From NCBI GenBank assembly GCA_020634015.1, contig JACKCN010000003.1, positions 173,429 to 237,428 on the forward strand: 64,000 bases of DNA, given 5' to 3'. This stretch comes from Candidatus Delongbacteria bacterium (GTDB lineage Bacteria > CAIWAD01). Below the pieces are notes generated by a model, which made no database searches, was not told where the DNA came from, and saw only the letters and a list, made by a program, of their open reading frames with translations. Below, in pieces: positions 3,812 through 57,124 of the stretch (the first letter of the stretch is position 1; each line of letters begins with the position of its first letter). The position numbers and the translations under genes are program-made.

Positions 3812-3835
3812 CTGCGTTCGGATCGGATGCGAGCG

Positions 3836-4587: not shown

Positions 4588-4591
<4 letters not shown>
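3836..4591 (-). CDS. sdhB: succinate dehydrogenase/fumarate reductase iron-sulfur subunit
   Basis: It carries the Cys clusters of the 2Fe-2S, 4Fe-4S and 3Fe-4S centres ([30 protein letters not shown]). A GTG start at 4591 follows AAAGGAG. The start overlaps the sdhA stop in a GTGA arrangement. Confidence 0.9.
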
Positions 4592-6501
<1,910 letters not shown>

Positions 6502-6517
6502 TGGGAAGGCTCCCGAT

Positions 6518-7501: not shown

Positions 7502-8080
7502 ATGTACGAACTCCCCGATCGTGTCCGTGCGTGGGAGCTGCTCTGCCTGCACACCCAGAGCGAAAGCCTTCGCAAGCACGCTCTGGCGGTGGAAGCCCTC
7601 ATGGGTGCCCACGCTCGCGAAGCCGGTGAGGATGCGGATCTCTGGGAGCGCTGCGGCCTTCTGCACGATTTTGACTACGAGCGCTGGCCCGATCCGGCGG
7701 AGCATACGGTCCAGGGCGGAAAAATCCTGGAAGAAGCAGGCTATCCGCCGGAACTGATCCGTGCCATCCACAGTCATAATCCGGGCAACGGGCTGGGTGT
7801 CCCGCTGGATACGGCAATGGCGCGCACCCTGTTCGCCGTGGATGAACTGGCCGGATTCCTGGTGGGCGTGGCATTGGTTCGACCCAGCCGCAGCCTGCAC
7901 GATCTGGAACCGCGCAGCGTGATCAAGAAGTTCAAGGACCGCGCCTTCTGCGCTGCGGTCAGTCGTGAGGACATGACACAGGGGGCCGAGCTGCTGGGAC
8001 GCACGATGGACGTGCACCTGGCCTTCTGCATTTCGGCGCTCAGGCCGATCGCCGATGAGCTGGGGCTGGCTGGCCACTGA
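7502..8080 (+). CDS. HD domain-containing phosphohydrolase
   Basis: H...HD metal-binding signature ('LHTQSESLRKHA', 'GLLHDFDYE') and a distal His ('IHSHN'). Confidence 0.8.
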   Translation: MYELPDRVRAWELLCLHTQSESLRKHALAVEALMGAHAREAGEDADLWERCGLLHDFDYERWPDPAEHTVQGGKILEEAGYPPELIRAIHSHNPGNGLGVPLDTAMARTLFAVDELAGFLVGVALVRPSRSLHDLEPRSVIKKFKDRAFCAAVSREDMTQGAELLGRTMDVHLAFCISALRPIADELGLAGH

Positions 8081-8124
8081 GCCCTGCGGGCACGACGGGG
8101 TACCAATGGAAGAGGGGAGTCGGG

Positions 8125-8343
8125 ATGGGAGTCTATCGCTACAGGATTGAGGGCATGTCCTGCGGAGGCTGCGTCGGGTCGGTGACCCGGCTGCTGCAAC
8201 AGAGCGAACCGGATGCGGACGTGACGGTCAGTCTGGAGAGTGCCAGCGCCCAGCTGACGAGTGAGCGGGTTCCTTCCTTCGATCGGATGAAGGAGGCCCT
8301 CGCCAAGGCGGGGTTCACGCTCCAGGAAGCGCAGGCCCGCTGA
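8125..8343 (+). CDS. heavy-metal-associated (HMA) domain protein, CopZ-like metallochaperone
   Basis: A 72-aa protein with 'GMSCGGCVGSV' (the GMxCxxC metal-binding loop). Its stop overlaps the next start in a TGATG arrangement. Confidence 0.8.
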   Translation: MGVYRYRIEGMSCGGCVGSVTRLLQQSEPDADVTVSLESASAQLTSERVPSFDRMKEALAKAGFTLQEAQAR

Positions 8344-8960
8344 TGGACGTACTGAACACTTTCACCAGGAGCCGGCTTTGGCTGCTGGGCTTTTTTCTGG
8401 TTGCCGGCGCTGCGCTGGCCGGAAGCGACTCAGGGGTTCCGCTGACTCGCGGGGATCTGGACGGATCCGCGCTGTACGGGCAGGTTCCGGCGGCCGGCTC
8501 GCCCGAACGGCAGTTGATGTGGCGCGGCCGCGATTGCCGCTATCCCACTGATCATTGCCTGATCTGCGACCGCATCCTGCCCGGCAAGGACCACCGGGGA
8601 GTGGACTTCGTGATCGATGGCGTGACCGTGCGACTTTGCGGCCCCGCCTGCCAGAAGCAAGCCCAGGAGCTGGATCAGACCGGCAAGCAGGAGCTGGTGC
8701 AGCGCCTGAATCTGGCGGTGGTCCAGCGGGACCTGCCCGAATACCCGTTGACCTCCAGCCCCGTGAGCGGGCAGAAACTGAGCAGCCCCATCGATGGGGT
8801 CAATCAGGTCTTCGACAACACGCTGGTCCGACTGGCCAACGAGGCCGAGGTGGCCGAGTTTCTCAAGGACCCCTGCGGCTATGTGCTGGCGGTTCGCCTG
8901 GCGCGCACCCTGGCCGCCCAGCGTTGCCGTCCTGTCCCCGGCGAAAGCGTGCATCCATGA
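8343..8960 (+). CDS. membrane-anchored hypothetical protein with Cys-rich zinc-ribbon (TRASH/YHS-like) motif
   Basis: An N-terminal TM/signal segment is followed by 'CLICDR...(21 aa)...CGPAC', a CxxC...CxxC spacing. It is translationally coupled to the HMA gene upstream and the flavin reductase downstream (ATGA overlap). Confidence 0.5.
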   Translation: MDVLNTFTRSRLWLLGFFLVAGAALAGSDSGVPLTRGDLDGSALYGQVPAAGSPERQLMWRGRDCRYPTDHCLICDRILPGKDHRGVDFVIDGVTVRLCGPACQKQAQELDQTGKQELVQRLNLAVVQRDLPEYPLTSSPVSGQKLSSPIDGVNQVFDNTLVRLANEAEVAEFLKDPCGYVLAVRLARTLAAQRCRPVPGESVHP

Positions 8961-9637
8961 GAGTCATCGAGCACCCACGCGTGGCACCGGAACGACGCTG
9001 GGGGGCGGAACAGTACCGCACCCTGGAGCTGGCAGGGCAGTCCGCGGGAGCGATCTATCACCTGATGACCGCGATGATCGTGCCCCGGCCGATCGCATTG
9101 ATTTCCACCGTGGGTGAACAGGGCCAGTTGAATGTGGCCCCGTTTTCCTTTTTCAACGGGGTCTGCTCCGATCCTCCGATCCTGAGCGTGGCCATCATCC
9201 GGCACCCGGTGTCGGCCGAGCGACCGGATCCGGAGTCCCGCCTCAAGGACACGGCGCGCAATATCCGGCGCACGGGCGAGTTCGTGGTGAACATCGCGCC
9301 AGTCAGTCTGGCCGCGGCCGTCGAGACCGCGGGCAAGTCCTGGCCGACCGAGCAGAGCGAAGCCGAGATCTGCGGGCTGGAGGCGCTGCCTTCGTTGAAG
9401 GTGGCCGTTCCTCGCCTGGGCAATTGCCCGATCCAGCTGGAATGCCGCCTCGAGCGGATCGTTGAAGTGGGCCAGGGCCCCACCGACCTGGTGCTGGGAC
9501 GCATTGTCGAAGCCCACGCGGCGCTCGAGGTCTTTGGCGACAAGGGCAGGCTGGATGTGGACCGCATCCTGCCGCTTTCCCGTCTGTCGGCGGGGTCCTA
9601 TGCCGGACTCCAGGAAAGCTTCCGTTTCGTTTTCTGA
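8957..9637 (+). CDS. flavin reductase-like (FMN-binding split-barrel) domain protein
   Basis: 'IALISTVGEQGQLNVAPFSFFNGVCSDPPILSVAI' is typical of the flavin reductase / HpaC family. The start was reassigned from track ORF 8555..9637 to the in-frame ATG 8957, which overlaps the upstream stop. Confidence 0.75.
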   Translation: MRVIEHPRVAPERRWGAEQYRTLELAGQSAGAIYHLMTAMIVPRPIALISTVGEQGQLNVAPFSFFNGVCSDPPILSVAIIRHPVSAERPDPESRLKDTARNIRRTGEFVVNIAPVSLAAAVETAGKSWPTEQSEAEICGLEALPSLKVAVPRLGNCPIQLECRLERIVEVGQGPTDLVLGRIVEAHAALEVFGDKGRLDVDRILPLSRLSAGSYAGLQESFRFVF

Positions 9638-9739
9638 GCCTGCGACAGCAACGGGCCAGCGCACACAGATCACAGCACAGCCAACAAGTCAATCGGGCAG
9701 CGCTTCGTGCGCCAGCCCGCCATATTCCGGAGGTTCCCC

Positions 9740-10348
9740 ATGCATCGTCTTCCCGATCTGCCCTATGATTTCAACGCCCTCGAGCCCAGCATTGACGCGC
9801 GTACCATGGAAATCCATCATGGCAAGCATCACAACGCCTACGTGACCAATCTGAACAACGCTCTGGAAGCCGCGGGCGGAGACCTGGGCGACAAGGACAT
9901 CATCAGCCTGTGCGCCAACCTGAACCTGGTGCCCGAGGCCCAGCGCACGGCCGTGCGCAACAATGGCGGCGGCCACTACAATCACAGCCTGTTCTGGAGC
10001 GTGATGTGTTCCGGCGGCAGCGCCGACGTCTCCCTGGAACTTGCCCGCGCAATCGATGATTTCGGTGGCATGGATGCCCTGCGCGAGAAGTTCGCCGCAG
10101 CCGCCGCCACCCGCTTCGGCAGCGGCTGGGCCTGGATCACGGCCTCCGGCGGCAAGATTCAGGTGAGCAGCACCCCCAACCAGGACAACCCGCTGATGGA
10201 CAACAGTGGCACGCCCATCCTGGGTCTGGATGTCTGGGAGCACGCCTACTACCTGCACTACCAGAATCGCCGCCCCGATTACATCAAGGCCTGGTGGGAA
10301 GTGGTCAACTGGGCCGAAGTGTCCAAGCGCTTCTCCGCAGCCCGTTGA
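9740..10348 (+). CDS. sod: superoxide dismutase [Fe/Mn]
   Basis: '[32 protein letters not shown]' and 'DVWEHAYYL' are canonical Fe/Mn-SOD metal ligands. GGAGG RBS at 9729. Confidence 0.9.
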
Positions 10349-10367
10349 GCTCCGGATGGTCCTTCAG

Positions 10368-10393
10368 GAAACGCCCCCTCGTGGGGCGTTTCT
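10368..10393 (+). terminator. rho-independent terminator downstream of sod
   Basis: Hairpin AAACGCCCC-ctcgt-GGGGCGTTT, followed by TCTCTT. Confidence 0.5.
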
Positions 10394-10522
10394 CTTGCTC
10401 CACTGCCGGTTGATTGACATTCTGGAACGCATCCCGAAACTCCTGCATGCCCGACAGGCGTCGCGCGTGTACGCACCCGGTCTGGAGTCCGGACAGTGGC
10501 CAGCATCACGTTGGAGTGAGCC

Positions 10523-10894
10523 ATGAATCTCGGTGCATTTTCGATCAGCCTCGCGGTCAAGGACATCGTGGCCTCGCGGGACTTCTACCAGAAGTTCGGC
10601 TTCACGGTCTGGGGTGGAAACGTGGAACAGAACTGGCTGATCATGAAGAACGGCGCGCACATCATCGGCCTGTTCCAGGGCATGTTCGAGCGCAATCTGA
10701 TGACCTTCAACCCCGGTTGGGATCAGGACGCGAACACGCTGCCCGAGTTCACTGACATCCGTGAACTGCAGCGCCAGGTGAAGGCCCAGGGTGTCGAGCT
10801 GCTGCCCGAAGCCGACGAGCACGGCACGGGTCCCGCCAGTTTCATGGCGATTGATCCCGACGGCAATCCGATTCTGGTGGACCAGCACGTCTGA
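10523..10894 (+). CDS. VOC (glyoxalase/bleomycin-resistance) family protein
   Basis: 123 aa starting 'FSISLAVKDIVASRDFYQKFGF', with a beta-alpha-beta(3) module pattern. Confidence 0.75.
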   Translation: MNLGAFSISLAVKDIVASRDFYQKFGFTVWGGNVEQNWLIMKNGAHIIGLFQGMFERNLMTFNPGWDQDANTLPEFTDIRELQRQVKAQGVELLPEADEHGTGPASFMAIDPDGNPILVDQHV

Positions 10895-11003
10895 CGTACC
10901 GGATTGCCCGGATTGGGTGTGAGGCGAGCGCAGGTCAAGGCACGCGTGGTCCTGCTGTTGCCCAAGCCAGTGAACGCTGGATCATCAACGCGAGGACTTT
11001 TCC

Positions 11004-45022: not shown

Positions 45023-45412
45023 TCACGAATCCTTCGACACGTGTGCGGAATGCTCTGGCGATCCGGCAGGCGAATTCCTCCGCGCAGCCAGCGTTTTCTT
45101 GCGCTCCTCCGTGAAGTCCCACCAGGGACGCGGCTCATGGCCACTCATGAAGCGCGTGACCGAGATGAACACATCCAGCACGCAGGGATCCTGGCGGCAG
45201 GCGGTCATTTTGCACAACTGCTCATACATGACCCAGGGATCGCGCCCCACCAGATCGGTGGGTTCCTGAATGCCCAGCAGACGCAGATCAGCCGCGCTGG
45301 CCGGGCCGATGTTGGGCAGGTCGACAAGTCGTCTGGTTCTTGAGCGGATGACTTTGGTGGGGTTCATGGGGAGTGACTGCATTTTGATCCAAGCGCGTGA
45401 CCGCTCGATCAT
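45023..45412 (-). CDS. helix-hairpin-helix DNA-binding protein
   Basis: 'LVDLPNIGPASAADLRLLGIQEPTDLVGRDPWVMYEQL' is an HhH (TfoX-C/ComEA-like) motif. Start reassigned to MIERSRAW, which forms an ATGA overlap with the DUF45 stop. Confidence 0.5.
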   Translation of the reverse strand: MIERSRAWIKMQSLPMNPTKVIRSRTRRLVDLPNIGPASAADLRLLGIQEPTDLVGRDPWVMYEQLCKMTACRQDPCVLDVFISVTRFMSGHEPRPWWDFTEERKKTLAARRNSPAGSPEHSAHVSKDS

Positions 45413-45735
45413 GGGTTCGATTGACTGTGCATAACGTGCTTCAATTCTGCTTCGTACACCTCGTACTCGCCCAGATGGGCTCGCATGAAGACCTTCCAGA
45501 GCTTGCCGTGGTTGGGCGTGCGCAAATGGAGCAGCTCGTGAACAATGACATAGTCCTGCAGCTTGGAGTTCAGGTGCAGCAGATCGGTGCTGAAATTCAG
45601 ATGGCCTTTGGTCGAACACGAAGCCCACTTGGCGCGCATCGGGCGTACGGCAAGGCGGACGATTTTCACATCCAGTGCCGTTTCCCACTGGCGTACGCGG
45701 GCCTTGAAAGTGAGTACGCGGTCTGCCTGCGTCAT
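45409..45735 (-). CDS. DUF45/YgjP-like zinc metallopeptidase-fold protein (WLM/SprT-like)
   Basis: HExxH 'YVIVHELLHLRTPNHGKLW'. Proteins of this family commonly follow hsdR. The start is 4 nt after the hsdR stop. Confidence 0.7.
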   Translation of the reverse strand: MTQADRVLTFKARVRQWETALDVKIVRLAVRPMRAKWASCSTKGHLNFSTDLLHLNSKLQDYVIVHELLHLRTPNHGKLWKVFMRAHLGEYEVYEAELKHVMHSQSNP

Positions 45736-45739
45736 GGGA

Positions 45740-48661
45740 TCAAATCCGCCCGGCCTTGTCCAACAGCGAGAACAGCTCTTCCACGACATCGGCCACCTGC
45801 TGCAGGTCGTCCAGTTCGGCGGCTATCGCAAAAGTGACTTTCTGACGTAACTCTCGCAGGGTGGCTTCGCTTTTCTTCCAGTTGGGCAGGTCCACGAAGG
45901 CGGCCTTGATTCGCCCGCTGACCGATTCCGCATTGCCGACCCCTTTGTCCAGCAAGGTCCTGTAAACGAAATAGGTCAGGCCATCAAAGCCTTTGGCTGC
46001 CTGCTCCTTCTTGCGGAGTTCGTTGGCTTCCACGGCCTCAAGCAAGGTGGCCAGGGCTTCACTTGTGGAAGTCTGCCGCTCTTCGAAACTCTGCTGGACG
46101 GCCAGGGCTCGTTCCGCCATCGCGATCAGAAACGGATCGTCGCTTTCCTCTTCGGCCGTCTTCTGGATGCTGCGGATCAGGTTGATGACTTTCGTGCCTT
46201 CGCCGCCACGGGTTGACTTGATGAGTTCGATCGTATCCTCGTCGATCCGGATCCGGCCGCTGGGATCCGCGAGTCCATAGGTGCCCACCTGTTCCTGGAT
46301 CAAACTGCCCGTCTTGCGTTGGAACTCCCGGTCCACATAGACTGTCTTTGCAAAAGCCTTGCGCACCACGTGGTACATCGCTGCCAGTGATGTATAGGAA
46401 TCGATGAACGGCCGCAAGAAGGCATCCGGTGAGATGATTTCGTAAAGCATCTCGAGTTCCTTGAACTCCTTGAAGAATACCTTGCGCCGGTCGGCATCAC
46501 GAAAATGCTCGATCAGAGTTTCCACATCCTTGTCATTGAAGTTCTGTTCAATCAGGGCGAGATACGCCGGTGCCGATTGTTCCATCCTGGATTTGAACAA
46601 TTCCTTGAGCAGCTTCAGATCCTTGACGATGGCGTTCACTTCGTCGCTGTCGAAGGCCAGCGCCTTTGACAGCTTGTCAAAGATGCCCACGAAATCCAGC
46701 ACGAAACCGTGTGGCTTCACCATTTCCTGTGCTTCGTTCTCGTACGGGCGGTTCACCCGGGCAATGGCCTGCAGCAGAGTGTGGTCACGCATCGGCTTGT
46801 CCAGATACATCGCGTACAGCACGGGTGCATCGAAGCCCGTCAGCAGTTTCTCGGTGACGATGAGAATCTTCGGCTGCTGGTCCAGCTTGCCAAAGCTCTT
46901 GCGGATCTGGCGTTCACGCTTGCTCTCAAGATGGAACTCCTTCAGCAGGGCCGAATCGTTGTTGTTGTCCGTGTACACCACCTCCGAGTAATCGGGCGGC
47001 AGAAACTGGTCCAGCGCATGTTTGTACATCGCACAGGCTTCGCGGTCCACACCTACCAGAAAGCCTTTGTAACCCAGCGGCTCCACGGTTTCCCGGTAGT
47101 GACTGGCGACGAACTGTGCCACCTGCTGGATACGCTGTGCCCCTTTGAGGAAGTTTTTCAGGGTCACCGCCCGCTCAAGGATCTTGTTCAGTTCCTCAAT
47201 GTCGGCCACGCCTTCGGCTTCGGCGAGGGAGAGAAACTCCTTGTCCAGAGTTTCGTGCGGAACGAGCAGTTCGTTGGGGGCGAGCTGGTAGTACAGCGGC
47301 AGGGTGGTGCCGTCCTCGATACTGTCCGAGATGGAGTACTTGTGCAGGTAGCCCCGGTCATCTTCGCAGCCGAAGGTCTTGAAGGTACCCTTGCCGTAAA
47401 CGGTCCTGTCCACCGGCGTTCCCGTGAAGCCGATGTAGGTCGCATTCGGCAGACCGGCCATCAGGAAGTTGCCCAGATCGCCACCAGTGGTACGGTGGGC
47501 TTCGTCAATAAGCACGTAGATATTGGTGCGCGTGTTGATATCCGCAGGCATGTCGCGGAATTTGTGCACCATGGTCACGATGATACCGCGGTAGTCATCC
47601 CTCAGCAGCTGGTTGAGTCGATCGATGCTGCTGGCGTGCTCCAGATTGCCCATGCCGAGCGCGGCCAGATTCTTCAGCATCTGATCTTCCAGCTCGTTGC
47701 GGTCAATCATCAGCAGCACGGTGGGCTTGTCGGCTTCCGGTGCGCGGAAGAGCTTTTCCGCCGCCTTGATTATGGTGAAAGTCTTGCCGCTTCCCTGGGT
47801 GTGCCAGACGAGGCCCCGCCTGCGTCCGGGATCGAGGGCCCGACCGACAGTCGCTTCCACGGCGCCGGTCTGGTGCTGGCGCAGGATGTATTTGTTCAGC
47901 TCCTCGTCCTTTTCGGCGAAGACGATGTAGTCCTTCAGAAAGGCCAGCACCTGCGGAATGGCACAGAAGCTGCGAACCTTGGCCTCCAGCTTGCCGAGCT
48001 CCGTGTCCTTCCAGTTGAAGATGTTCCGCCGCACCGTATTCCAACTTGCACCGTATGAGAAGCCGATCGCGTCGGTGGCGGTGAACAGTTGTTGCGACAC
48101 GAACAGTTCGGGAGTCTCGCGGTGGTAGCGGCGGATCTGGTCCACCCCCAGGGCAATCGCCTCGTCCTTGCTGGCGTTCTTGCACTCGATCACCAGTACG
48201 GGGATGCCATTGATGAGAAAGACCACATCTTCCCGCGTTCCGTAGCGCCCGTTGTGAAAGGCCCACTCCTCGGTCACTTCGTAGACATTGTTCGTTGGCT
48301 CGTCGTAGTCGATCAGGTTCAGGTCGCGCTCGCGCTTCTCCTGGTGATCGAAGAACTTGCCGTGGTTTCGCAGGTGCTCGACGAATTCACGGTTTCCGTA
48401 AATGTCGGTGTGTAGGCGACGGAACTGTCCGGGCAGAGCACCCGCGGCCTCGGCGTAACACGGGTTGAACTCCCGCACCTTGCTGTCCAGCAGAGCCTCG
48501 AAGTAGAGCGAACGGTTCCGGGCTCGGTCGGCAACCGGCGTGTCGGGATCAAACCCGCGCCGCTGCTCAGCTGCGGCACGGGACACAACAGTCCAGCCGA
48601 TAGCCTCGGCGTAGGCGAGGATCCGGGATTGGACGGTTTTATGTTCTCCGGGTGTGAGCAT
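45740..48661 (-). CDS. hsdR: type I restriction enzyme R subunit (helicase/endonuclease)
   Basis: N-terminal nuclease region and SF2 helicase motifs ('HTQGSGKTFTIIKAAEKL' motif I, 'IYVLIDEAHRTTGG' motif II DEAH). The 973-aa length is typical of HsdR. Confidence 0.92.
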   Translation of the reverse strand: MLTPGEHKTVQSRILAYAEAIGWTVVSRAAAEQRRGFDPDTPVADRARNRSLYFEALLDSKVREFNPCYAEAAGALPGQFRRLHTDIYGNREFVEHLRNHGKFFDHQEKRERDLNLIDYDEPTNNVYEVTEEWAFHNGRYGTREDVVFLINGIPVLVIECKNASKDEAIALGVDQIRRYHRETPELFVSQQLFTATDAIGFSYGASWNTVRRNIFNWKDTELGKLEAKVRSFCAIPQVLAFLKDYIVFAEKDEELNKYILRQHQTGAVEATVGRALDPGRRRGLVWHTQGSGKTFTIIKAAEKLFRAPEADKPTVLLMIDRNELEDQMLKNLAALGMGNLEHASSIDRLNQLLRDDYRGIIVTMVHKFRDMPADINTRTNIYVLIDEAHRTTGGDLGNFLMAGLPNATYIGFTGTPVDRTVYGKGTFKTFGCEDDRGYLHKYSISDSIEDGTTLPLYYQLAPNELLVPHETLDKEFLSLAEAEGVADIEELNKILERAVTLKNFLKGAQRIQQVAQFVASHYRETVEPLGYKGFLVGVDREACAMYKHALDQFLPPDYSEVVYTDNNNDSALLKEFHLESKRERQIRKSFGKLDQQPKILIVTEKLLTGFDAPVLYAMYLDKPMRDHTLLQAIARVNRPYENEAQEMVKPHGFVLDFVGIFDKLSKALAFDSDEVNAIVKDLKLLKELFKSRMEQSAPAYLALIEQNFNDKDVETLIEHFRDADRRKVFFKEFKELEMLYEIISPDAFLRPFIDSYTSLAAMYHVVRKAFAKTVYVDREFQRKTGSLIQEQVGTYGLADPSGRIRIDEDTIELIKSTRGGEGTKVINLIRSIQKTAEEESDDPFLIAMAERALAVQQSFEERQTSTSEALATLLEAVEANELRKKEQAAKGFDGLTYFVYRTLLDKGVGNAESVSGRIKAAFVDLPNWKKSEATLRELRQKVTFAIAAELDDLQQVADVVEELFSLLDKAGRI

Positions 48662-48968
48662 GAGTTACAGATTCTCGCTCGGCGCTGGTGGAAAGCCCGA
48701 GAGTTGGGTCACATGATTCCACGAGCAAATCGGCTTGACTGAGTATTCAGAACTCTCAAAGTCAGCAGGAGGATTTGTGTGCGTCTTCATTCTCTTGGCC
48801 ATCGTTGAATTTGCGTCTCCCGATTGAAGGGGCAGCTGAAAACCGCAGGCTATCCCAACATTGAGTTTGTATGTGTATGCCCAAATGGATCGAGATATTC
48901 GTACGTCTCCTATGGGCATCAACATTCAAAGATTGGCATGATTCAGGTCGTGTCTGCTGATTCAGTGC

Positions 48969-51050
48969 TCAATTTGCGGGTAGTCCGAGTTTGTCAAAGA
49001 ACGCGCGATTCCGTTCTTTCGCCATATTTACAAGGCGGCCAAAGGAGATCACTTCCACATAGGCGTTTACGTTGTCCTTATAGCCAAAATAACCCTGTCC
49101 ATCAGAAGTGCGCTTGAGGTTGTGATGAATTCGACAGCGCTTTTCAAACGATGGTGTAAGGTCTGCGAGGATGTAGCAGAAACCTGGAACAACATTGTTT
49201 TGGAGTGATGGAATGGGCCGCCCAGTTGATGTCATCACACCTCCTTGTCGAATTCTTTCAAGATAGTCGATCGCCTGTTCGATGGGGTCATGGTCCTGAC
49301 CCGCCTTTGCATCATTCCGCATCGGTCGTTTTATCTCCACAATCTCGATGCTGGCAGGCGGAAGCTTGGTTCCTTCTGAAACCAAAATCGGTTGATCGAA
49401 GACATTCAAGACGCAGATATCGGGTTCCTTACCATCTCCAGATGCTGTAATGGGAATCGACTTGAGCGGTTTATCCGAAGCTAGGTAATCATGGAACGCG
49501 AGCCTTTCATCGACTAGCCATAAATTGCAACTGTCCATCAGGAGTTCCGAGCTATCCTTCCGCATTTGAATAATGAGGCTGTGAATTAACTCCTCCCGAA
49601 CGTAGTTCCCGTGCACATCCTTCTCGATAGCCTTTTCGAAGAGGTCAATAATCACCCGCCGGTGCGAAACGTAACTCGCAAGATCTGATTTCTTGATGTC
49701 CGCGGCTTTTGCCAAGTAAGACTCGAGCTTAGTCCTGTATTGTTCATCCAGTGGTGCGTGAGTTTGGCTGAGGATGTCGTGCCCTTCGCTTATAAGTTCC
49801 CTCTCGAAATTTGCGAACTGTTTATGAAGAGTGAGTTCCAGATCCTTGTCCGAAATGTCGGGATCGATATTTAGTTCAGTCTCAGGAATTCGAGAGAGGA
49901 TGGGGCGATAGCGGGGCGCCTTGGTTGCAACAAACGTCGAGACCTTGTCTTTCGAGCGCTGCAAGTTTTTCTCGAGATGCTCTGCCAGTTGCACTTTTGC
50001 TCGCTCTACTACCGCCTCTCGAATGTCGTTGAGGCCGATCTCTGTGTTCGCAAATAGCCCATCGACATTGTCGATAATTTCAAATCCTGTGCGCTCAGGA
50101 CGTACATTTTCATCTAAAAATGCCGAACTCACATAACAGGAATAAACGAACTCGCCGTTAGCATCTGTGAGTTTCCCGTGTAGCCCCGGCAACTTGCCGG
50201 ACAGCTTTTCTTCTGCGACCAGTCGATTGTCGGCGCAGAACGCGATGAAATGCGCCGAGAGGGAGGTATACCTGAGCCGGACATGAACGAGGTCGAATGA
50301 CTGTTCCTTGATGGAAATGGTTTCCGGAACGGCCGAAGAATGCATGTGAGCATCGTAGACATCATTTATTGAAATCAATTCTGCTTCATCAACGAGTTCG
50401 ATTAGCGGTGCACCACCCTGCCTGATGAAATACCACAGGCAGTGCTCAAAAATGCTATCAGCTATCGCGCCAGGGGTTTTACGTGCGTACTCGCGATAGC
50501 GCGTATTGAACTCATCAAGGTGGACACTGGTACTGATCGAAGAACTTACGGGTGCCGTGTAGTTTTCCTCATTAGAGACTCCGCCGTCGGCGCTAAAGGT
50601 GAAAGTGCGCTGAAAGAGGCTTTCACCCACTCGATAGGTACTTTCAACTCGGACGTTCTTGAAGGCTTTGAGCCAGAGCAAGCGTCCTATTCCACGGCAA
50701 CCCTTTTGGATTTTATGTTCTGAATCAAGTGTCCGGAACGACAGCATGTTGTCGTCTGTGAATCCGATTCCGTTATCCTCAATTTTAAATCCGACAATGT
50801 CCTCAAGTGCATCCGGCCCTCTCTTCTTGGAATCTCTCAGATTCAAGGATCCTTGTTTTGATCCCCGAAGAATAGTGACCCGGATTCGACCGTCTTCTGT
50901 GGAAACACTCGCTTCCTCAAGTGCATGAATCGAATTCACTACCGCCTCAAACAGTGGAAGAAGGCCACTTGTCAAGGGTAGGGGGGTGTTTCTGAGCCGA
51001 CCGCCTAAATTTGCCGGCATCGTGCTTGTTGATTTCGGCGATGTGCTCAT
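48969..51050 (-). CDS. GHKL (Bergerat-fold) ATPase with putative C-terminal PD-(D/E)xK nuclease-like module, embedded between hsdS and hsdR
   Basis: N-box 'FEAVVNSIHALEEA' (ExxxNxxxA) and G1-box 'IVGFKIEDNGIGFTDDN' (DxGxG). The C-terminal 'ICVLNVFDQP...(19)...IEIVEIKRP' fits D...ExK. Low GC (~50%). 4-nt overlap with the hsdS stop. Confidence 0.7.
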   Translation of the reverse strand: MSTSPKSTSTMPANLGGRLRNTPLPLTSGLLPLFEAVVNSIHALEEASVSTEDGRIRVTILRGSKQGSLNLRDSKKRGPDALEDIVGFKIEDNGIGFTDDNMLSFRTLDSEHKIQKGCRGIGRLLWLKAFKNVRVESTYRVGESLFQRTFTFSADGGVSNEENYTAPVSSSISTSVHLDEFNTRYREYARKTPGAIADSIFEHCLWYFIRQGGAPLIELVDEAELISINDVYDAHMHSSAVPETISIKEQSFDLVHVRLRYTSLSAHFIAFCADNRLVAEEKLSGKLPGLHGKLTDANGEFVYSCYVSSAFLDENVRPERTGFEIIDNVDGLFANTEIGLNDIREAVVERAKVQLAEHLEKNLQRSKDKVSTFVATKAPRYRPILSRIPETELNIDPDISDKDLELTLHKQFANFERELISEGHDILSQTHAPLDEQYRTKLESYLAKAADIKKSDLASYVSHRRVIIDLFEKAIEKDVHGNYVREELIHSLIIQMRKDSSELLMDSCNLWLVDERLAFHDYLASDKPLKSIPITASGDGKEPDICVLNVFDQPILVSEGTKLPPASIEIVEIKRPMRNDAKAGQDHDPIEQAIDYLERIRQGGVMTSTGRPIPSLQNNVVPGFCYILADLTPSFEKRCRIHHNLKRTSDGQGYFGYKDNVNAYVEVISFGRLVNMAKERNRAFFDKLGLPAN

Positions 51051-52216
51051 AAGGAAATCTCCAATCTGTGAACGCGGGACTTCGCGGTCATCAGTTCGTG
51101 AAGGAGGGTGAGGAAGAGGTCTTGGAACGAGTGTTTGCGACTCTCGTGAAAGGTGATCTTTGATTCGACCGTTTCCAGCGCTTCGCCGATCTCCACCTGT
51201 TGGCCCTTTGGGGGGACAACGATCTTCTCGCCGTGGACAATATTCCGATTCAATGTTGGGTTTGCGGCTCCCGTGTCGAATCGCTTCAGTCGCATAGTCT
51301 TAAGCAAGTAACCGACAAATCGGGGATCGTTCCCTTTGAAATCTTTCACCCAAAGAGTCGTGTCATGAGGCCAATAGTCGGTTGGAATATAGTGGACCGT
51401 TCCGAGGGTGCCCTTACGCCCGATAACGACCCCCGGGCCCTTTACTTTCGGTTCATCGTGATAGCTGCTAACGCCTCCAGATGAGACGACCGGATACTCT
51501 CCGGGTCTTTGGTCCTTTTTCGTGATGTCGAATCCTCTTTGAAGAACAGCGAATGAATCGAAGCGTTTGACCTCCCAGCTTTCGGGGACGGGGCCGATTT
51601 CGGTTTGTTTTTGGGGTTCGTTGCGAAGGCCTTCGGTGAAGAGCTTGTGCATGAGAGCCTTCTTCAGCTCTGTGGTTGTCTGAATGATCCGCTCCTGCGC
51701 TTCGATCGCCTTCTGCACCGTCGACAGGATGTGCGCCATCTTCTTCTGTTCGGCTAGTGGGGGGAGTGAAAGGCGGAATTCCTTCAGCGAAGGCCACGAT
51801 GTCCTGGGATGCTGAACCCCGCTCGTCGTTGATTTTGCGTGGTCGATGAATTCATTGCTGTGGATGACAAACTTCAAGTACTCTGACTCACAGGAAGGCG
51901 TAGCACGAAATGCGAGAATGTCCGTTGAGCATACACCATCAAAATTGGCCCGTGCGCCTTTGCGGAGATACGGACGAAGCTTTCCAAAGAGAATGTCGTC
52001 TACTTTGAAGGCCGTCTTGGCGGACTTCACGTCGCTTTCTTTTCCTCGGCCAACAAACACGGGAAATCCTTGGGCCAGGTGCTCAAGGCCTACATATGGT
52101 GTGTCGCCGCCTTCGATTGGTTTGTATGAATCCTTCACACGATTGCATATGTCACCAAACTTGTGGTTTTCCCATCCAGGAGGCAGTGGATCAAGAAGCA
52201 AGTTGGAATCGCTCAT
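51047..52216 (-). CDS. hsdS: type I restriction-modification specificity subunit
   Basis: Two target-recognition domains separated by the conserved central and C-terminal coiled-coil repeats ('SLPPLAEQKKMAHILSTVQKAIEAQERIIQTTTELKKALMHKLFTEG' and 'LLHELMTAKSRVHRLE'). Start reassigned to MSDSNLLLDP with a GGAG RBS. The upstream part of track ORF ..52348 begins with GTG and is unlikely to be coding. Confidence 0.85.
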   Translation of the reverse strand: MSDSNLLLDPLPPGWENHKFGDICNRVKDSYKPIEGGDTPYVGLEHLAQGFPVFVGRGKESDVKSAKTAFKVDDILFGKLRPYLRKGARANFDGVCSTDILAFRATPSCESEYLKFVIHSNEFIDHAKSTTSGVQHPRTSWPSLKEFRLSLPPLAEQKKMAHILSTVQKAIEAQERIIQTTTELKKALMHKLFTEGLRNEPQKQTEIGPVPESWEVKRFDSFAVLQRGFDITKKDQRPGEYPVVSSGGVSSYHDEPKVKGPGVVIGRKGTLGTVHYIPTDYWPHDTTLWVKDFKGNDPRFVGYLLKTMRLKRFDTGAANPTLNRNIVHGEKIVVPPKGQQVEIGEALETVESKITFHESRKHSFQDLFLTLLHELMTAKSRVHRLEISL

Positions 52217-52466
52217 GCTCCGTATTTCTCCTGAGATTTTTTGAAAGCCTTGTTCACCCATCGTATTGTAGCTGTCACTTTCACTCCCCGTGGAAGACCA
52301 GTGTATACGTTGACCCAGCCTATCTCCTTTTCTGCGTCTAGGCCACACAACGCATGTTGCCAGCCTGGCCTTCCACAGGCTCGGAGGCTTACGGGATGGC
52401 TTACTGGTCGAGCCCCAGCGGCTTTATGGGGTGCGACTATTATGGCTTGTTCGTGCGTTTTCACGA

Positions 52467-52796
52467 TTAGCCCTTTTCTTGGTTTGCCTGCTTGAGCAAG
52501 GTGCGGCCCTTGTCGGTAAGGCGATACTGCTGAAGGCGGCTGGTGGGCTTGTCCGGATTGGTGCGCTCCACCAGTCCCTCGGCCAGTGCCGGGTCGATGG
52601 TGGTTTCGCGCAGGCGTCGGCGATCCCTCAGGGCAAAGGCTTCCAGGATCTCGGCGTTGGTCAGGGTGCCGGGGTTCCAGACCTCCAGCCGGTCGGTGAA
52701 TAGCATGACCTGGACACTGCCGTTGCTGTTGTGATCGCGGTGGGCCACGGCGTTGACGATGGCCTCGGCCGCCACGTCCTCTCGCCAGATTGGCAT
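52467..52796 (-). pseudogene. 3' fragment of an HATPase_c_4 plus winged-helix gene (truncated paralog of 53021..54511)
   Basis: It encodes only 'AIVNAVAHRDHNSNGSVQVMLFTDRLEVWNPGTL...' (the HATPase_c_4 core) and a terminal wHTH ('YRLTDKGRTLLKQ'). There is no N-terminal domain. The upstream part of the track ORF is non-homologous filler. Confidence 0.5.
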
Positions 52797-53020
52797 GAGC
52801 AATGGCGGGATCGGTCGTTTCCGGAACGAGGTGCCGAACAGTCCTGCCATTGGTGCGCGAAGTTCTGCGGGATATCCCGGAAGTCTCCAACCCAAGCTTT
52901 TCCTCTCGCCATTTTGGCGCGAGAAATGGCGTGAGAGCTTGCTTTCCCCCAGGAAAGGGTCAGTCTCGCGCCATTCTGGCGAGAGGCTTGGCGAGACGGT
53001 GGGCCTGTGACTGAGCAATC

Positions 53021-54511
53021 TCATGGTTGGAGGATGCGGTATTTGGTCGCGTTTCCTCTGCCTTCCTTCTTCAGGAAACCGAGGTCCACGAGGTGTTTGA
53101 GGTGGTTGAGAGATGTGCGATTCGGAATCTCCATGGCCTTTTTATACTCAGCGGCGGAGACGATCTCTCTTGCGGCCAACCACTCCCAGCCCCTGCGTTC
53201 CGCGGGGCTGAGCTGGTCGAGTATTTCCGCTGGCAGGGCCTGTGTCGCCGCCTGGGCAGTGCGGTAAAGAGTCAGGTCAAGATAGGGTGCGGTATAACTG
53301 AACTTCGGAAGGGGAAGGCCTGCTTCCGTCGCTTTGCTGCGCATGGACTTGAGGCCCAGACCGCGTTCCTCGGCAAGTTCCATGGTGTTGAAAACCGCAT
53401 GCAGTCGCGGATTGCGGCTGACCATGGGCGCGGTGAACGACTGCAATTGCTCGAGAGTGATCGGGGCGACGGGGGCGCCGGGACTGCGGATGGTCACCGT
53501 GTCGCCGGTTACCACCAGTTGGATCTTGCAGCCCTCGATGTCGTAGTCACGGTGAACGAGGGCATTGGCGAGGCCTTCGCGAACCAGTTCGTAGAAGGCA
53601 TCATTGATACTCGTCCGTTGGGCATTCGAGCGATTGATGGCATCGGGCAGTTTCTCGCGCAGCCAGGCAATCACCTGACTGGGGCCCAGCACCATGGGAC
53701 CGTCAAAATCTCTGAGTTCTTCCCCTGTACCACGGGCAATCGTCGCCATGACACCTGCCTGGAGAAGAATGTCGCGGGGGTGTTCTCCGAAGAGAAGGTG
53801 GGCGAATCGTGTTGGTGCGAGAATGCCGTCTGTGGTTTTCACCAGCAGACCCTGGTGAGACAACCGGCGATGGAACTCGTCGTCGCTGCCCGTGCCTTTC
53901 TTGAACAGAAAGCGGCGGTAGTAGCTGAGCGCTTCGTTGTCGAGATCCTGCATGGACACCTGAGCAGGATTCTGGTCGTAGAGGGAAGGCGCCAGGGTTG
54001 GCCCCTCTTCCATCTGCTCGGCCTTTCGTCGCGCCTGATCGAAGAAGTCGGCATTCTCCCGCTCGATGATTTCCTGCAGGTCCCGGTCGAATGGAATGAC
54101 CTCGACGCCCATCTGTCGCAGGTAGCGAAGGCCCTCCCCGGCAACCTTGGGATGTGGGTCCTCACAACCGTAATAGACCGTCTTGATTCGTGCGTTGGTG
54201 ATACGTCGCGAACACCCGATCTTCGGCACAGTGCGGGACATGGGGCCGCAGGGTTCCAGAGTGGCAAAGAGAACACAGTCGCTGAGATCCACAGCACCAT
54301 TCTTGCGCTCGATCAGGGTGTATTCAGCATGGTCGCCCTCGCGCAGCTCACCCCGACTGGCCGTTCGAGTCGTTCCATCGGGCATCCAGAGCACAGCCCC
54401 GACTTTCGGAGGGACCGTATCGTCAGCACGCCTCTCGCGTATGGAAGCCTTCATGACTTCCACCGCTTGCTCCATCAGCTTTCTCGGATCGAATGGCGTT
54501 GACCTGGCCAA
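53021..54511 (-). CDS. fusion protein: N-terminal CDA/RibD-like zinc deaminase domain, then central domain, then HATPase_c_4 (Schlafen/'RecG-like' ATP-binding) and C-terminal winged helix
   Basis: Deaminase zinc ligands 'HAEYTLIE' and 'TLEPCGPMSRTVPKIGC' (HAE...PC..C). The HATPase_c_4 core 'NALVHRDYDIEGCKIQLVVTGDTVTIRSPGAPV...RNPRLHAVFNTMELAEERGLGLKSM' is followed by the wHTH 'SAAEYKKAMEIPNRTSLNHLKHLVDLGFLKKEGRGNATKYRI'. It lies between hsdM and hsdS. Confidence 0.7.
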   Translation of the reverse strand: MARSTPFDPRKLMEQAVEVMKASIRERRADDTVPPKVGAVLWMPDGTTRTASRGELREGDHAEYTLIERKNGAVDLSDCVLFATLEPCGPMSRTVPKIGCSRRITNARIKTVYYGCEDPHPKVAGEGLRYLRQMGVEVIPFDRDLQEIIERENADFFDQARRKAEQMEEGPTLAPSLYDQNPAQVSMQDLDNEALSYYRRFLFKKGTGSDDEFHRRLSHQGLLVKTTDGILAPTRFAHLLFGEHPRDILLQAGVMATIARGTGEELRDFDGPMVLGPSQVIAWLREKLPDAINRSNAQRTSINDAFYELVREGLANALVHRDYDIEGCKIQLVVTGDTVTIRSPGAPVAPITLEQLQSFTAPMVSRNPRLHAVFNTMELAEERGLGLKSMRSKATEAGLPLPKFSYTAPYLDLTLYRTAQAATQALPAEILDQLSPAERRGWEWLAAREIVSAAEYKKAMEIPNRTSLNHLKHLVDLGFLKKEGRGNATKYRILQP

Positions 54512-54523
54512 TGGTGGACCCTC

Positions 54524-56083
54524 CTAGACCCCGATCTGCTTCAGAATCTTCATCAAAGCCTTGTCCGTCTCACGAGCTTCGGCTTCGATGACCTTCAACT
54601 CCGCGACAATCTCCGCAATCGGGCGGTAGGTCTCCGCGTCGCTGGTGTGTATGTAGCGACTCGGTGAGATGTTGTAGTCGTTTTTCTTCAACTCGGCGTG
54701 ATCGACGATGCGGCTGAGCTTTTCCTCTTCCTTCCACCCGATGAGGGTCTCGGCGATGCGTTGGATGCCTGCGTCCGGGATGAAGTTCTTGGGCTCGCCC
54801 TTTTCGAAGATCTGACTGGCGTTGACGAGAAAGACCTTGCCCTGACGGGATTTGGGCTTGGCCCTGTTGAGAAAGAGCACAATGCCCGGGGCAGTGGTGT
54901 TGTAGAACAGATTTTCCGGCAGATAGAGTACGCTCTCGATCAGATCCTGATCCACGAACCACTGGCGTACCGTGCGTTCCTTGTTGCTGCCGGCATTGCC
55001 CGAGCCACGCGAGGCAGCACCCGTGTCGAGAACCACGGCAGCACGGCCCGTGTCGTTCAGGCAGGCGTGAATGTGCTGAACCCAGCCCCAATCGGCGGAG
55101 GACTTTCCCGGGAAGCCCGCACCGGCGGGGAAGCGGTCCAACTCGTCGGCGTCGTAGTCGGCCTCGGTGAACGAGTCCTGGTTCCACATGGGATTGGCGA
55201 CGACACGGTCGAAAGTGCGCAGCCTGCCCCGGCGGTCACGGAATTTTGGGTTCTTGAAAGTGTCACCGATTTCGATCTGACCTTCCATGTCGTGGATGAT
55301 CATGTTCATGCTGGCCATGGCCCAGGTTTCCGGTATGTACTCCTGGCCAAACAGCTTCAATGGAGCCACGCTGCGTTGCTTGCCTATGGAGCGTTCCTCC
55401 ATGGCGATCTCGCACTTCACGAGCAGCCCGCCGGAACCACAGGTAGGGTCATGGATTTCCATGCCCGGTTCGGGCTGGAGGACGCGTGACATGATCGTGC
55501 CGACTTCCGGTGGTGTGTAGAACTCGCCCGCGCTTGAGCCACTGCCCTCGGCGAACTTGCGGATGAGGTATTCATAGCTCTTGCCGATGATGTCGGCCTC
55601 GACATCATCCAGCCCAAGACGCTTGCTGCTGATGGCTTCGATCAGGTTCGAGAGCCGGTCGTCGTCGAGATCGCGCACGCCGTGAGTCGTGGCGTTGAAG
55701 TCCACGCGATCGATGATGCCCTGCAGCTGCGAGTTCTCTCTGGCAATGGCCCGCATCTGGGTGGTGACATTTTCACCGATTCTGTCGGCGAGCTTGCGGA
55801 TTACGGACCAGACAGGCAGATCGGGGTCATCAGGCACAAGGGGGAGGTAGAAACGGACCAGTTTGTGATCGGCCTTGACGAGTTGGAATGCCTTCTTGCG
55901 CGATCCGACTTCCTTGGCAATGCGGTTCACCTCGTCATCGAAGACATCACATAGACGCTTGGTGAAGATCAGCGGAAGGATGTAGTCCTTGAACTTCGGG
56001 GCATCCTTGGCCCCGCGAATTGAGCAGGCGGCGCCCCAGATCCATGATTCCAGCGACTTGCCATTGCCTTTGTTGTTTGCCAT
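54524..56083 (-). CDS. hsdM: type I restriction-modification DNA methyltransferase subunit (N6-adenine)
   Basis: HsdM N-terminal domain, an AdoMet-binding motif I 'IHDPTCGSGGLLV' and a catalytic motif IV 'VVANPMWNQ' (NPPF/W-type). GAAGGA RBS. Start reassigned to MANNKGN. Confidence 0.9.
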   Translation of the reverse strand: MANNKGNGKSLESWIWGAACSIRGAKDAPKFKDYILPLIFTKRLCDVFDDEVNRIAKEVGSRKKAFQLVKADHKLVRFYLPLVPDDPDLPVWSVIRKLADRIGENVTTQMRAIARENSQLQGIIDRVDFNATTHGVRDLDDDRLSNLIEAISSKRLGLDDVEADIIGKSYEYLIRKFAEGSGSSAGEFYTPPEVGTIMSRVLQPEPGMEIHDPTCGSGGLLVKCEIAMEERSIGKQRSVAPLKLFGQEYIPETWAMASMNMIIHDMEGQIEIGDTFKNPKFRDRRGRLRTFDRVVANPMWNQDSFTEADYDADELDRFPAGAGFPGKSSADWGWVQHIHACLNDTGRAAVVLDTGAASRGSGNAGSNKERTVRQWFVDQDLIESVLYLPENLFYNTTAPGIVLFLNRAKPKSRQGKVFLVNASQIFEKGEPKNFIPDAGIQRIAETLIGWKEEEKLSRIVDHAELKKNDYNISPSRYIHTSDAETYRPIAEIVAELKVIEAEARETDKALMKILKQIGV

Positions 56084-56149
56084 ATGCAAACGGTCCTTCG
56101 AGTTTCCTGCAATGATGCTTCTCGTTCTGTGATTCCAAATCAATCGAAG

Positions 56150-57124
56150 TCAAGCCAAAGACTCCCGATGGACAACTGCTTCACGAAGCTGATTGATTCT
56201 GGTTGCCAATTCCATCTGCAAACTGCTCAGTTTCGCGGATTGGACATCCGCTCGCTCACGAGTCTTCACCGCCCAGTCACTGCCTTTGAATCTCGACAGG
56301 TTCAAGTAGACGATGGACAATGAACCCGAAGCGGCGGCCAATGCGGAACTCAATGCAACTCCGGAATCGCCGCGCGCCGCTTTGAACCCCAGATCAAAGA
56401 CAATCAGTGCCTTCTCTGCAAGTGTCAGACATACTTCGGCGATTTCGATTGGGATATCTGTCGCCTTCCTTAGCTCTTCAAGTGCCCGCTCCGAAAGTGC
56501 GCGCCTCTTGTTCCTGTCCTCTTCGGCATCTCGCAGTCGCCTGGCCTGAATGACACGTTCGAACTGCTCTGAGTCACTCTGTAATGCGCTCACCAGTTTG
56601 GGTTCGATGCCGTTCAGGATATCCTGGTTGGCCAATGTCAACTGGGGGACGACTCCTTGATACTGATCTCGGCCATTCGTCAGAGACACAACTGTCTGCA
56701 ACAGTTTGCACGCAAGCAATCCAATCAGCGCGGCGGCACTTCCGGATCCAGGTTTGTGATTCCCGGAGCCGAATTTGTTCAGCAGCTGATCCGCCGGCAA
56801 CTTGATCAACTCTCCAGTCACAACTTGTCCTTCCAAATGGCCACCCATTGGCTGGGATGTGGTGCTTTCATTGAAATGGCCGGCTATCGGTGCTTCGGCT
56901 GACTGCCCCACAAAACCTACTGCTTGCCGATCGCACTGTGAAACAACATATCGATATGGCGAACTGCCAAGGAACGCTGCACAACCATCCGTGGCCCAGA
57001 CTTTTCTGCGGATGCGTGGTGGATTGCGATCAGACAGGGCGTTCTTGGCTGGAGAGATGTGTGGAGTGTCAGCTGGTGTGTGAGCCATGGCGGCTGGCGC
57101 TGCTGTCAACTCATTGAAAATCAT
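56150..57124 (-). CDS. cyclodeaminase/cyclohydrolase (FTCD_C-like) family protein
   Basis: 'GSGSAAALIGLLACKLLQTVVSLTNGRDQY', then 'DSEQFERVIQARRLRDAEEDRNKRRAL' and 'DSGVALSSALAAASGSLSIVYLNL', follow the FTCD_C/FchA pattern. Low GC. The true start may be the internal Met near 56848. Confidence 0.55.
   Translation of the reverse strand: MIFNELTAAPAAMAHTPADTPHISPAKNALSDRNPPRIRRKVWATDGCAAFLGSSPYRYVVSQCDRQAVGFVGQSAEAPIAGHFNESTTSQPMGGHLEGQVVTGELIKLPADQLLNKFGSGNHKPGSGSAAALIGLLACKLLQTVVSLTNGRDQYQGVVPQLTLANQDILNGIEPKLVSALQSDSEQFERVIQARRLRDAEEDRNKRRALSERALEELRKATDIPIEIAEVCLTLAEKALIVFDLGFKAARGDSGVALSSALAAASGSLSIVYLNLSRFKGSDWAVKTRERADVQSAKLSSLQMELATRINQLREAVVHRESLA

Follow-up and report, generated by a model that had tools for sequence, protein, structure and literature searches.

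A GHKL ATPase with a predicted PD-(D/E)xK nuclease domain, encoded behind hsdS in a type I restriction–modification operon, belongs to a large and divergent family of probable defence nucleases

What is a GHKL-type ATPase that ends in a putative nuclease domain doing inside a type I restriction–modification (R-M) operon? The question is raised by a 693-residue protein encoded in a 64,000-nucleotide stretch of a Candidatus Delongbacteria genome (assembly GCA_020634015.1, contig JACKCN010000003.1, positions 173,429 to 237,428 of the forward strand; this whole stretch is called the window below), where its gene lies between hsdS and hsdR. A first-pass annotation, made from the sequence of the window, had seen in it a distinct effector sitting in a PrrC-like slot and controlled by, or cooperating with, HsdR. 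The analysis described here favours a different answer: with a probability of roughly 60%, the protein would be a self-contained, ATP-gated DNA nuclease that provides, as a single protein, a defence against phages and other mobile DNA. This reading is based on the conservation of both of its active sites and on a family that is mostly stand-alone, sporadically distributed and often found beside defence or mobility genes.

Results

An intact gene

The gene and its overlap with hsdS are located as follows.

48969–51050, minus strand: whole gene, 693 residues, comprising a GHKL ATPase, a middle domain, a helical linker and a predicted PD-(D/E)xK nuclease (from the open reading frame list and its translation)
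51047–51050, minus strand: ATGA overlap between the hsdS stop and the start of the gene, seen in the sequence; translational coupling

The stop codon occupies 48969–48971, and a GGAG lies 8 nt upstream of the start ATG. A protein 100% identical to this one, annotated as 'ATP-binding protein', is found in a Candidatus Delongbacteria metagenome-assembled genome (P0002). One search returned 2,177 homologs, while an exhaustive profile search yielded 4,022 clusters at 50% identity, 1,461 of them with E ≤ 1e-30; the best 150 representatives are nearly all full length (~660–700 residues) and match from end to end. With so many homologs, nearly all of the best ones complete, and an identical annotated protein, the open reading frame is real and intact, and not the frameshifted remnant that the first-pass annotation had allowed for.

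The ATP-binding half

The N-terminal half contains the following elements; the coordinates of the three motifs have been verified.

50496–51017, minus strand: GHKL (Bergerat-fold) ATP-binding domain, residues ~12–185
50934–50948, minus strand: GHKL motif I (N-box), E35-A-V-V-N39
50763–50777, minus strand: GHKL motif II (G1 box), D92-N-G94-I-G96
50685–50702, minus strand: GHKL motif III (G2 box, ATP lid), G117-C-R-G120-I-G122
50076–50483, minus strand: middle or transducer-type domain, residues ~190–325, ending in a loop with R320 (50091–50093)

Residue conservation was counted over 138 representatives, reaching down to 33% identity. The string EAVVNSIHALEEA is present at residue 35 and IEDNGIGF at residue 90. 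Motif I has the ExxxN pattern of the GHKL superfamily, with E35 found in 136 and N39 in all 138 of the representatives; by analogy with GHKL enzymology, E35 is predicted to be the general base and N39 a Mg2+ ligand. D92, G94 and G96 of motif II are each invariant (138/138), as are G120 and G122 of motif III, where G117 is kept in 137 sequences and is accompanied by R123, directly after the motif (also 137/138). Position 174, in motif IV, is Thr or Ser in 137 sequences, so that motifs II, III and IV likewise have the form expected of GHKL proteins. The Bergerat ATP-binding site recognized in the first-pass annotation is thus borne out by near-invariant motifs as well as by the Bergerat fold itself, which is found in the N-terminal half.

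Structural alignment of this half gave scores of 15.7 with TRAP1 (295 residues aligned), 15.5 with GRP94 (299 residues), 14.0 with the GyrB N-terminal domain (165 residues), 13.9 with SMCHD1 (277 residues), 13.5 with ParE 43K (242 residues), 13.4 with the MutL N-terminal domain (252 residues) and 12.0 with MORC2 (272 residues). Since a bare GHKL domain accounts for only ~165 residues and alignments of 250–299 residues were obtained, a middle domain of the transducer type must be present at residues ~190–325, and the earlier statement that the protein has no transducer domains does not hold. R320, in the loop that follows this domain, is conserved in all 138 representatives and is a candidate γ-phosphate sensor, comparable to R380 of Hsp90, K307 of MutL and K337 of GyrB. 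A second domain with its basic residue, as in the class of GHKL proteins with a transducer (MutL, GyrB, Hsp90, MORC and paraMORC), is therefore found here too; the MORC signature of the S5 domain, GhXhhpXXRhl, was not seen in a check made by eye only. We regard the GHKL domain and the fold of the middle domain as established. The similarity to Hsp90, TRAP1, GRP94 and SMCHD1 (12–14% identity) is a resemblance of fold only: the Hsp90-type proteins are chaperones and SMCHD1 is a chromatin protein, and, unlike the protein studied here, they have no nuclease domain.

The helical arm and the nuclease domain

The remainder of the protein consists of a helical region and a C-terminal domain with four motifs.

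49626–50066, minus strand: all-helical linker or arm, residues ~329–475, with AlphaFold2 helices at 340–376, 401–428 and 436–474
48972–49625, minus strand: predicted PD-(D/E)xK (restriction-endonuclease fold) nuclease domain, residues ~476–693
49593–49595, minus strand: nuclease motif I, E486, in the helix EELIH490
49419–49424, minus strand: nuclease motif II, P543-D544 ('PD'), at the start of strand 545–550
49329–49337, minus strand: nuclease motif III, E572-I-K574, at the end of strand 566–573
49263–49277, minus strand: nuclease motif IV, Q592-A-I-D-Y596 (QxxxY, RecB/HsdR-type)

The arm (residues ~329–475), for which no family match was found, carries a conserved SDLAxYVxHR motif, with R464 kept in 137 of the 138 representatives; it may serve as a dimer arm or clamp.

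The full-length model was uncertain at residues 519–564 (predicted local distance difference test, pLDDT, ~30), and residues 430–693 were therefore modelled alone with 42 sequences, giving a pLDDT of 70 and a predicted template modelling score of 0.71. In this model, the helix with E486 and H490 is followed by strand 545–550, strand 566–573, the helix with Q592xxxY596 and more strands and helices, which is the element order of the restriction-endonuclease core. As in other PD-(D/E)xK enzymes, an Asp and an ExK lie on consecutive strands, with an acidic residue upstream in a helix. Conservation of these positions is close to complete: E486, E572 and K574 are found in all 138 representatives, H490, D544 and Q592 in 137, Y596 in 132 and P543 in 129. 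The first-pass annotation had arrived at a PD-(D/E)xK tail from the strings ICVLNVFD and IEIVEIKRP, which are indeed present at residues 545 and 568; its fold and its ExK (E572-x-K574) stand, whereas its choice of D552, the Asp in VFD, does not. Only 75 representatives have Asp at this position, against 50 with Asn, and the conservation pattern points to D544 as the catalytic Asp.

When the C-terminal model was compared with known structures, the highest scores were obtained for the nuclease SduA of Bacillus cereus Shedu (6.6 with 8ti9; 6.3 with 8ti8) and for N.BspD6I (6.5), followed by R.BspD6I (5.7), FokI (5.5), CdiA-CT (5.4), Upx (5.2) and Escherichia coli SduA (5.2). A Foldseek search of the same model against the PDB gave nothing significant, its top matches being the nucleases MspJI, McrC and FokI at E = 0.18–0.47. 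An initial hhalign comparison with Shedu, made with a narrow C-terminal alignment (A4; Neff, the effective number of sequences, 2.1), returned a match of only 23 columns. The final comparison used the broader 138-sequence alignment, with HsdR_N and reversed-profile controls added. Against HsdR_N (18 sequences) the C-terminal profile of the family reached a probability of 52% (P = 1.4e-4), with the D, ExK and QxxxY motifs in register; against Shedu (117 sequences, all PF14082) the match was weaker (6.5%, P = 0.0056), again with the motifs in register, D544 being aligned to the Asp of the catalytic motif and E572-x-K574 to the Shedu EIK. The reversed-profile controls gave probabilities of 0.1–0.2% and P values of 0.37–0.49. 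A nuclease-type fold with its motifs is thus well supported by the model and the profiles, and its subfamily is probably either Shedu-like or HsdR/RecB-like.

The near-invariance of both the ATPase and the nuclease motifs indicates that the two active sites are under strict purifying selection. This bears on a reading in which the C-terminal domain would be non-catalytic or would not act on DNA, for instance as an RNase or as a sensor whose nuclease fold has degenerated, the protein as a whole being mainly an ATP-dependent chaperone or clamp. Such a reading seems very improbable, as the retention of the E, D, ExK and QxxxY residues in 132–138 of the 138 representatives is not what would be expected of a degenerate site, and in hhalign these motifs line up in register with those of the HsdR_N and Shedu active sites.

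Distribution of the family

A scan of one genome per species gave at least 581 matches, scattered sporadically over many phyla; carriers include Vibrio, Citrobacter, Acinetobacter, Pandoraea and Rhodococcus. Plasmids carry homologs as well (60 records, of which 30 are conjugative), and there the annotation does not go beyond 'ATP-binding protein' or 'hypothetical protein'. Elsewhere in NCBI the family bears these same names or, wrongly, that of 'sensor histidine kinase'. Among 60 diverse relatives (33–55% identical) searched against Pfam at E ≤ 0.01, HATPase_c was matched in 18 and HATPase_c_3 in 10, with a best E value of 5e-5, and single relatives matched PD-(D/E)xK families: Cap4_nuclease (1.1e-4), HSDR_N (5.9e-4) and SduA_C (0.004). 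PADLOC, run on the same 60 proteins, produced no meaningful match to Shedu or any other defence model.

Gene neighbourhoods

The genomic context was analysed for the best 80 of the at least 581 matches of the genome scan. In 83 loci, the genes up to five positions away from the family member in either direction were clustered by BLAST, and Pfam was run on the −1 and +1 neighbours; counts of embedding were restricted to the 57 loci flanked on each side by 4 kb or more.

Three loci of close homologs share the order hsdM ... hsdS, the GHKL-nuclease gene, 0–2 variable genes, hsdR and a YgjP-like gene, and a fourth that was looked up (57% identity) has no R-M genes. Across the family, type I R-M genes are present in 16 of the 57 fully flanked loci (28%) and absent, within 4–9 kb, from the other 41. 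The upstream neighbour is HsdS in only 18 of 66 cases; the remainder are unrelated by Pfam and include SRP54, sigma-70, GreA, Shedu, DarT1-NADAR, caspase, integrase and resolvase, and the downstream neighbours are likewise heterogeneous. Other genes in the neighbourhoods encode GmrSD_N, RhuM, SLFN_AlbA_2/HATPase_c_4 and ABC-type ATPases. Clustering of the 83 loci revealed no conserved partner gene besides HsdS, HsdM and HsdR, and these only in a minority of loci.

A role outside defence, in DNA repair, recombination or the maintenance of mobile elements, for instance as a MutL-like GHKL endonuclease that would serve plasmids or islands in replication, stability or the exclusion of competitors, is rather improbable in the light of these data. 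The family is distributed sporadically, in the manner of accessory genes, it has no conserved partner such as MutS or UvrD, and it has repeatedly become embedded in R-M operons and adjacent to known defence genes. Moreover, VcSduA, the closest tested protein of the same architecture, is anti-phage.

In all 18 loci with hsdS directly upstream, the junction between the two genes measures −4 to +12 nt; nine of them have the ATGA overlap and the other nine gaps of 1–12 nt. The position of hsdR, on the other hand, varies: it lies downstream, or else upstream with the GHKL-nuclease gene last in the operon, as in loci L046, L050, L053, L073 and L086. Because hsdR may lie on either side, the constant feature is a position right after hsdS, not one between hsdS and hsdR. 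That most family members stand alone and that those embedded behind hsdS are tightly joined to it are direct observations.

In the window, the first-pass annotation correctly described the overlap of the gene with hsdS, but its placement of the gene directly next to hsdR does not hold, since a 307-bp spacer (48662–48968) separates the two. In tblastx, the spacer matches the zinc-ribbon gene located behind an 85%-identical homolog in locus L009, and it is the remnant of such a gene, now decayed; in locus L008, whose homolog is 93% identical, no spacer intervenes and the gene adjoins hsdR. A minus-strand search of the spacer turned up neither a promoter nor a terminator-like site that could uncouple hsdR from the gene. 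An 86-residue open reading frame at 48665–48925 was rejected as a gene, having no family match and lying within the zinc-ribbon remnant.

Could the protein then be, as was first suggested, an accessory subunit of the type I enzyme or a guard over it, docked on HsdM/HsdS or HsdR? It might add to the enzyme a second cutting function, dependent on ATP, that operates during translocation, or fire in a PrrC-like manner when a phage anti-restriction protein disables the R-M complex. The tight junction in the 18 loci with hsdS upstream, with its nine overlaps, speaks for such a role, as does the fact that type I R-M is the sole recurrent neighbourhood of the family, with ~28% of the fully flanked loci embedded. 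There is also a precedent in TgvAB, which is encoded in a type I R-M operon and protects without the rest of the cluster, but 10- to 100-fold less against several phages than the whole cluster does (PMC11411939); TgvAB, unlike the protein studied here, consists of two-gene GmrSD-like type IV enzymes with no GHKL domain. Nevertheless, we consider a role as accessory subunit or guard unlikely. It is difficult to reconcile with the 41 of 57 loci that have no type I R-M genes nearby, with the changing side of hsdR and with the stand-alone homolog in L009, which is 85% identical, while the 93%-identical one in L008 is embedded. On a neighbour-joining tree with 57 tips, the embedded state changes at least 11 times (Fitch parsimony), close to the random expectation (mean 14.2, minimum 9 in 1,000 shuffles), and embedded and stand-alone members are interleaved over the family tree. 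Finally, the R-M operons that host the family carry many further, unrelated cargo genes (SLFN_AlbA_2/HATPase_c_4, RhuM, ABC-type ATPases and DUF3800), as is typical of a hotspot. Control by HsdR in a PrrC-like slot, as first proposed, is not supported by these findings.

A gammaproteobacterial group (L046, L050, L053, L073 and L086) has the order hsdR, ABC/SMC-type ATPase, hsdM, hsdS, GHKL-nuclease gene, which spans ~2100–11000 in each locus. The ATPase, of ~600 residues, has matches to AAA_21, AAA_15 and DUF2813, and the hsdS of L086 did not cluster as HsdS. This order is a second, different arrangement of cargo in type I R-M loci.

Discussion

Relation to known systems

The fusion of a GHKL ATPase with a nuclease is not in itself new, and the suggestion that it makes the protein a distinct effector is not supported. 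A paraMORC3 family with a GHKL domain, an S5-type domain and a C-terminal RecB-like nuclease with E-D-ExK motifs was predicted in 2008 (Iyer, Abhiman and Aravind, PMC2292703). The same study described MORC and paraMORC genes in R-M loci next to superfamily 2 helicases, and this premise of the first-pass annotation holds. The protein described here resembles paraMORC3 in its domain order, in its E-D-ExK motifs and in a wide but sporadic distribution with some members stand-alone, lacking conserved neighbours, and others in R-M contexts; the comparison is with the published description of the family. The contexts reported for paraMORC genes feature type III-like or SWI2/SNF2 helicases together with cytosine methylases and Vsr, and an hsdS junction in a type I operon is not among them. 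VcSduA-like DUF4263 proteins have also been called paraMORC3 (PMC12137116), but, unlike them, the present family does not match DUF4263 in hidden Markov model searches.

VcSduA, from the WASA lineage of Vibrio cholerae, combines a GHKL and a PD-(D/E)xK domain and was found in 2025 to protect E. coli against T1-like phages; variants designed to disrupt ATP hydrolysis or nuclease activity were tested in the same work (PMC12137116). VcSduA and the other GHKL-type (type I-D) Shedu proteins (PMC12137116; Gu et al., bioRxiv 10.1101/2023.08.10.552793) have the same domain order as our protein; for VcSduA, an entwined dimer enclosing a central cavity has been predicted. Our protein differs from them in having no match to SduA_C (PF14082) or HATPase_c_3, with only one of 60 relatives matching SduA_C (E = 0.004), in a profile that matches Shedu more weakly than HsdR_N, and in possessing the QxxxY motif and the ~150-residue helical arm region. 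By its sequence, it falls outside the current operational definitions of Shedu (PF14082 and the PADLOC models). Of the 5,499 Shedu genes surveyed, 602 lie within R-M systems. In two loci (L056:2789-4165 and L063:7607-8998), a bona fide Shedu gene (SduA_C, 5.9e-26) is found directly upstream of a member of the GHKL-nuclease family; the two kinds of gene are found next to one another, and one does not stand in for the other.

The similarity to other ATPase–nuclease systems is more limited. The endonuclease domain of MutL has another fold, with the motif DQHA(x)2E(x)4E in place of PD-(D/E)xK, and MutL, which acts together with MutS, is distributed as a conserved housekeeping gene; no Pfam match to MutL_C or DNA_mis_repair was found in our protein. 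A faint Pfam match to MutL_C (1e-5, 25.7 bits, cut-off 25) in the HsdS of L001 (8673-9971) is probably a coiled-coil artefact, if a curious one beside a GHKL protein. With PrrC and RloC the likeness is one of position only, that of an ATPase–nuclease gene inside a type I R-M operon. PrrC, which is almost exclusively embedded in type I R-M systems (Payne et al., 10.1101/2024.01.29.577857), joins an ABC-type ATPase to an anticodon RNase and is held in check by the R-M complex, whereas the protein studied here has a GHKL fold and no P-loop, and 72% of its loci are not embedded; it does not belong with PrrC. Taken together, these comparisons identify the family as a large, divergent and unannotated branch of GHKL-nuclease fusions, an architecture already known.

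Proposed function

In the mechanism that we propose, the GHKL and middle domains would dimerise on ATP binding, as in Hsp90, MutL, GyrB and MORC, and work as a clamp or switch, whose change of conformation would be relayed by the helical arms to the C-terminal PD-(D/E)xK nuclease, which, by means of E486, D544, E572-x-K574 and QxxxY, would then cut DNA. Dimerisation, gating of the nuclease by ATP and the choice of DNA as substrate would follow what is known of GHKL enzymology and of VcSduA, and it is by analogy with VcSduA that an anti-phage role is assigned. As the gene in the window directly follows hsdS and is translationally coupled to it, the module would be co-expressed with the methyltransferase genes, yet it would work without HsdR or the R-M system. 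The R-M operon would then be a recurrent landing site and expression platform, resulting in a layered defence. Independent defence genes nested between hsd genes, with HsdR-free and complementary protection, have indeed been described (PMC11411939; Payne et al., 10.1101/2024.01.29.577857).

Several points weigh against an autonomous defence nuclease. The family is so far known from its sequences alone. In Pfam, the window protein matches nothing at E ≤ 0.01, the best hit being HATPase_c at E = 0.083 (13.8 bits, cut-off 26.4); NCBIfam and PADLOC give no significant match, and searches of the PDB with the single sequence and with two profiles returned nothing useful (matches to antibody light chains and apolipoprotein A-I were rejected as chance). 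The match to HATPase_c_3 (PF13589) that had been expected on first reading is likewise absent from the Pfam scan of the window protein. Taken literally, therefore, the window protein has no GHKL profile hit, an outcome that the first-pass annotation had counted against itself; it is overridden by the fold and the motifs, which carry the assignment in a family too divergent for the curated GHKL models. Furthermore, R-M genes were detected by BLAST clustering and by Pfam on the −1 and +1 neighbours, so that divergent or more distant ones could be missed, and the 72% of loci that appear stand-alone is an upper estimate. The tight hsdS junction, together with ~28% embedding, could also reflect functional cooperation with the HsdM/HsdS complex.

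A more specific form of such cooperation can be imagined, in which the copies embedded behind hsdS are functionally wired to the methyltransferase core and dock on HsdM2S1, as an alternative, HsdR-free restriction subunit or as a guard. The clamp-nuclease might be loaded at unmethylated target sites, or it might fire when anti-restriction proteins of the Ocr/ArdA type bind the complex; it would then be a PrrC-like backup built from other domains, and the stand-alone copies would sense something else. We consider this arrangement rather improbable. The hsdS junction, invariably tight, offers a clean test case for deciding whether nested genes share only their expression or cooperate physically.

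If our reading of the protein as an autonomous defence nuclease holds, a very large family of ATP-gated defence nucleases has been missed by current resources for defence annotation: no NCBIfam, PADLOC or significant Pfam model recognizes the protein. The theme of GHKL-nuclease proteins represented by paraMORC3, VcSduA and MutL would also gain a second, divergent system in which a clamp gates a restriction-fold nuclease. Current views would not be overturned, since the architecture goes back, as a prediction, to 2008, and validation of a relative followed in 2025.

The host operon

The operon that carries the gene in the window was delineated by Pfam and PADLOC matches.

45740–56143, minus strand: type I R-M operon with embedded cargo
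54524–56143, minus strand: hsdM
53021–54511, minus strand: deaminase–HATPase_c_4 cargo gene, 496 residues, between hsdM and hsdS
51047–52348, minus strand: hsdS (Methylase_S, 1.7e-29)
45740–48661, minus strand: hsdR (HSDR_N, SWI2_SNF2, T1R_D3)

On the minus strand, the order is hsdM, the deaminase–HATPase_c_4 gene, a 185-residue fragment, hsdS, the GHKL-nuclease gene, the 307-bp spacer and hsdR. The 496-residue protein starts with a zinc deaminase of the CMP/dCMP type (PF00383, 1.3e-9, with weaker matches to Inv-AAD and MafB19-deam), which is followed by HATPase_c_4 (2.6e-16) and a C-terminal ArsR-like helix-turn-helix; it also has weak PADLOC matches to Aga_SIR2 and pAgo models. Its counterpart in related R-M loci is an SLFN_AlbA_2 + HATPase_c_4 gene. 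It seems that a deaminase has been swapped in for the Schlafen/AlbA_2 domain, and the protein may be a separate, unusual defence effector. The 185-residue open reading frame (52467–53024, minus strand) matches only the C-terminal part of an HATPase_c_4/Fic-like_C protein (Fic-like_C, 8.3e-16) and appears to be a decayed copy of the cargo gene next to it.

An FTCD_C (cyclodeaminase-like) gene lies just upstream of hsdM on the same strand (56150–57124). At the other end, YgjP-like genes, called as such, follow hsdR in L001 and L003, and ~190 bp downstream of hsdR in the window (~45459–45647) match the one in L001, the gene being truncated here. A 221-residue open reading frame (45023–45688, minus strand), whose C-terminal half carries a Cdd1 ('pathogenicity locus') domain, overlaps this remnant. 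The R-M island as a whole (~45700–57100) has a G+C content of 0.51–0.59, as against 0.61–0.66 in the flanking DNA, which suggests that it was acquired horizontally.

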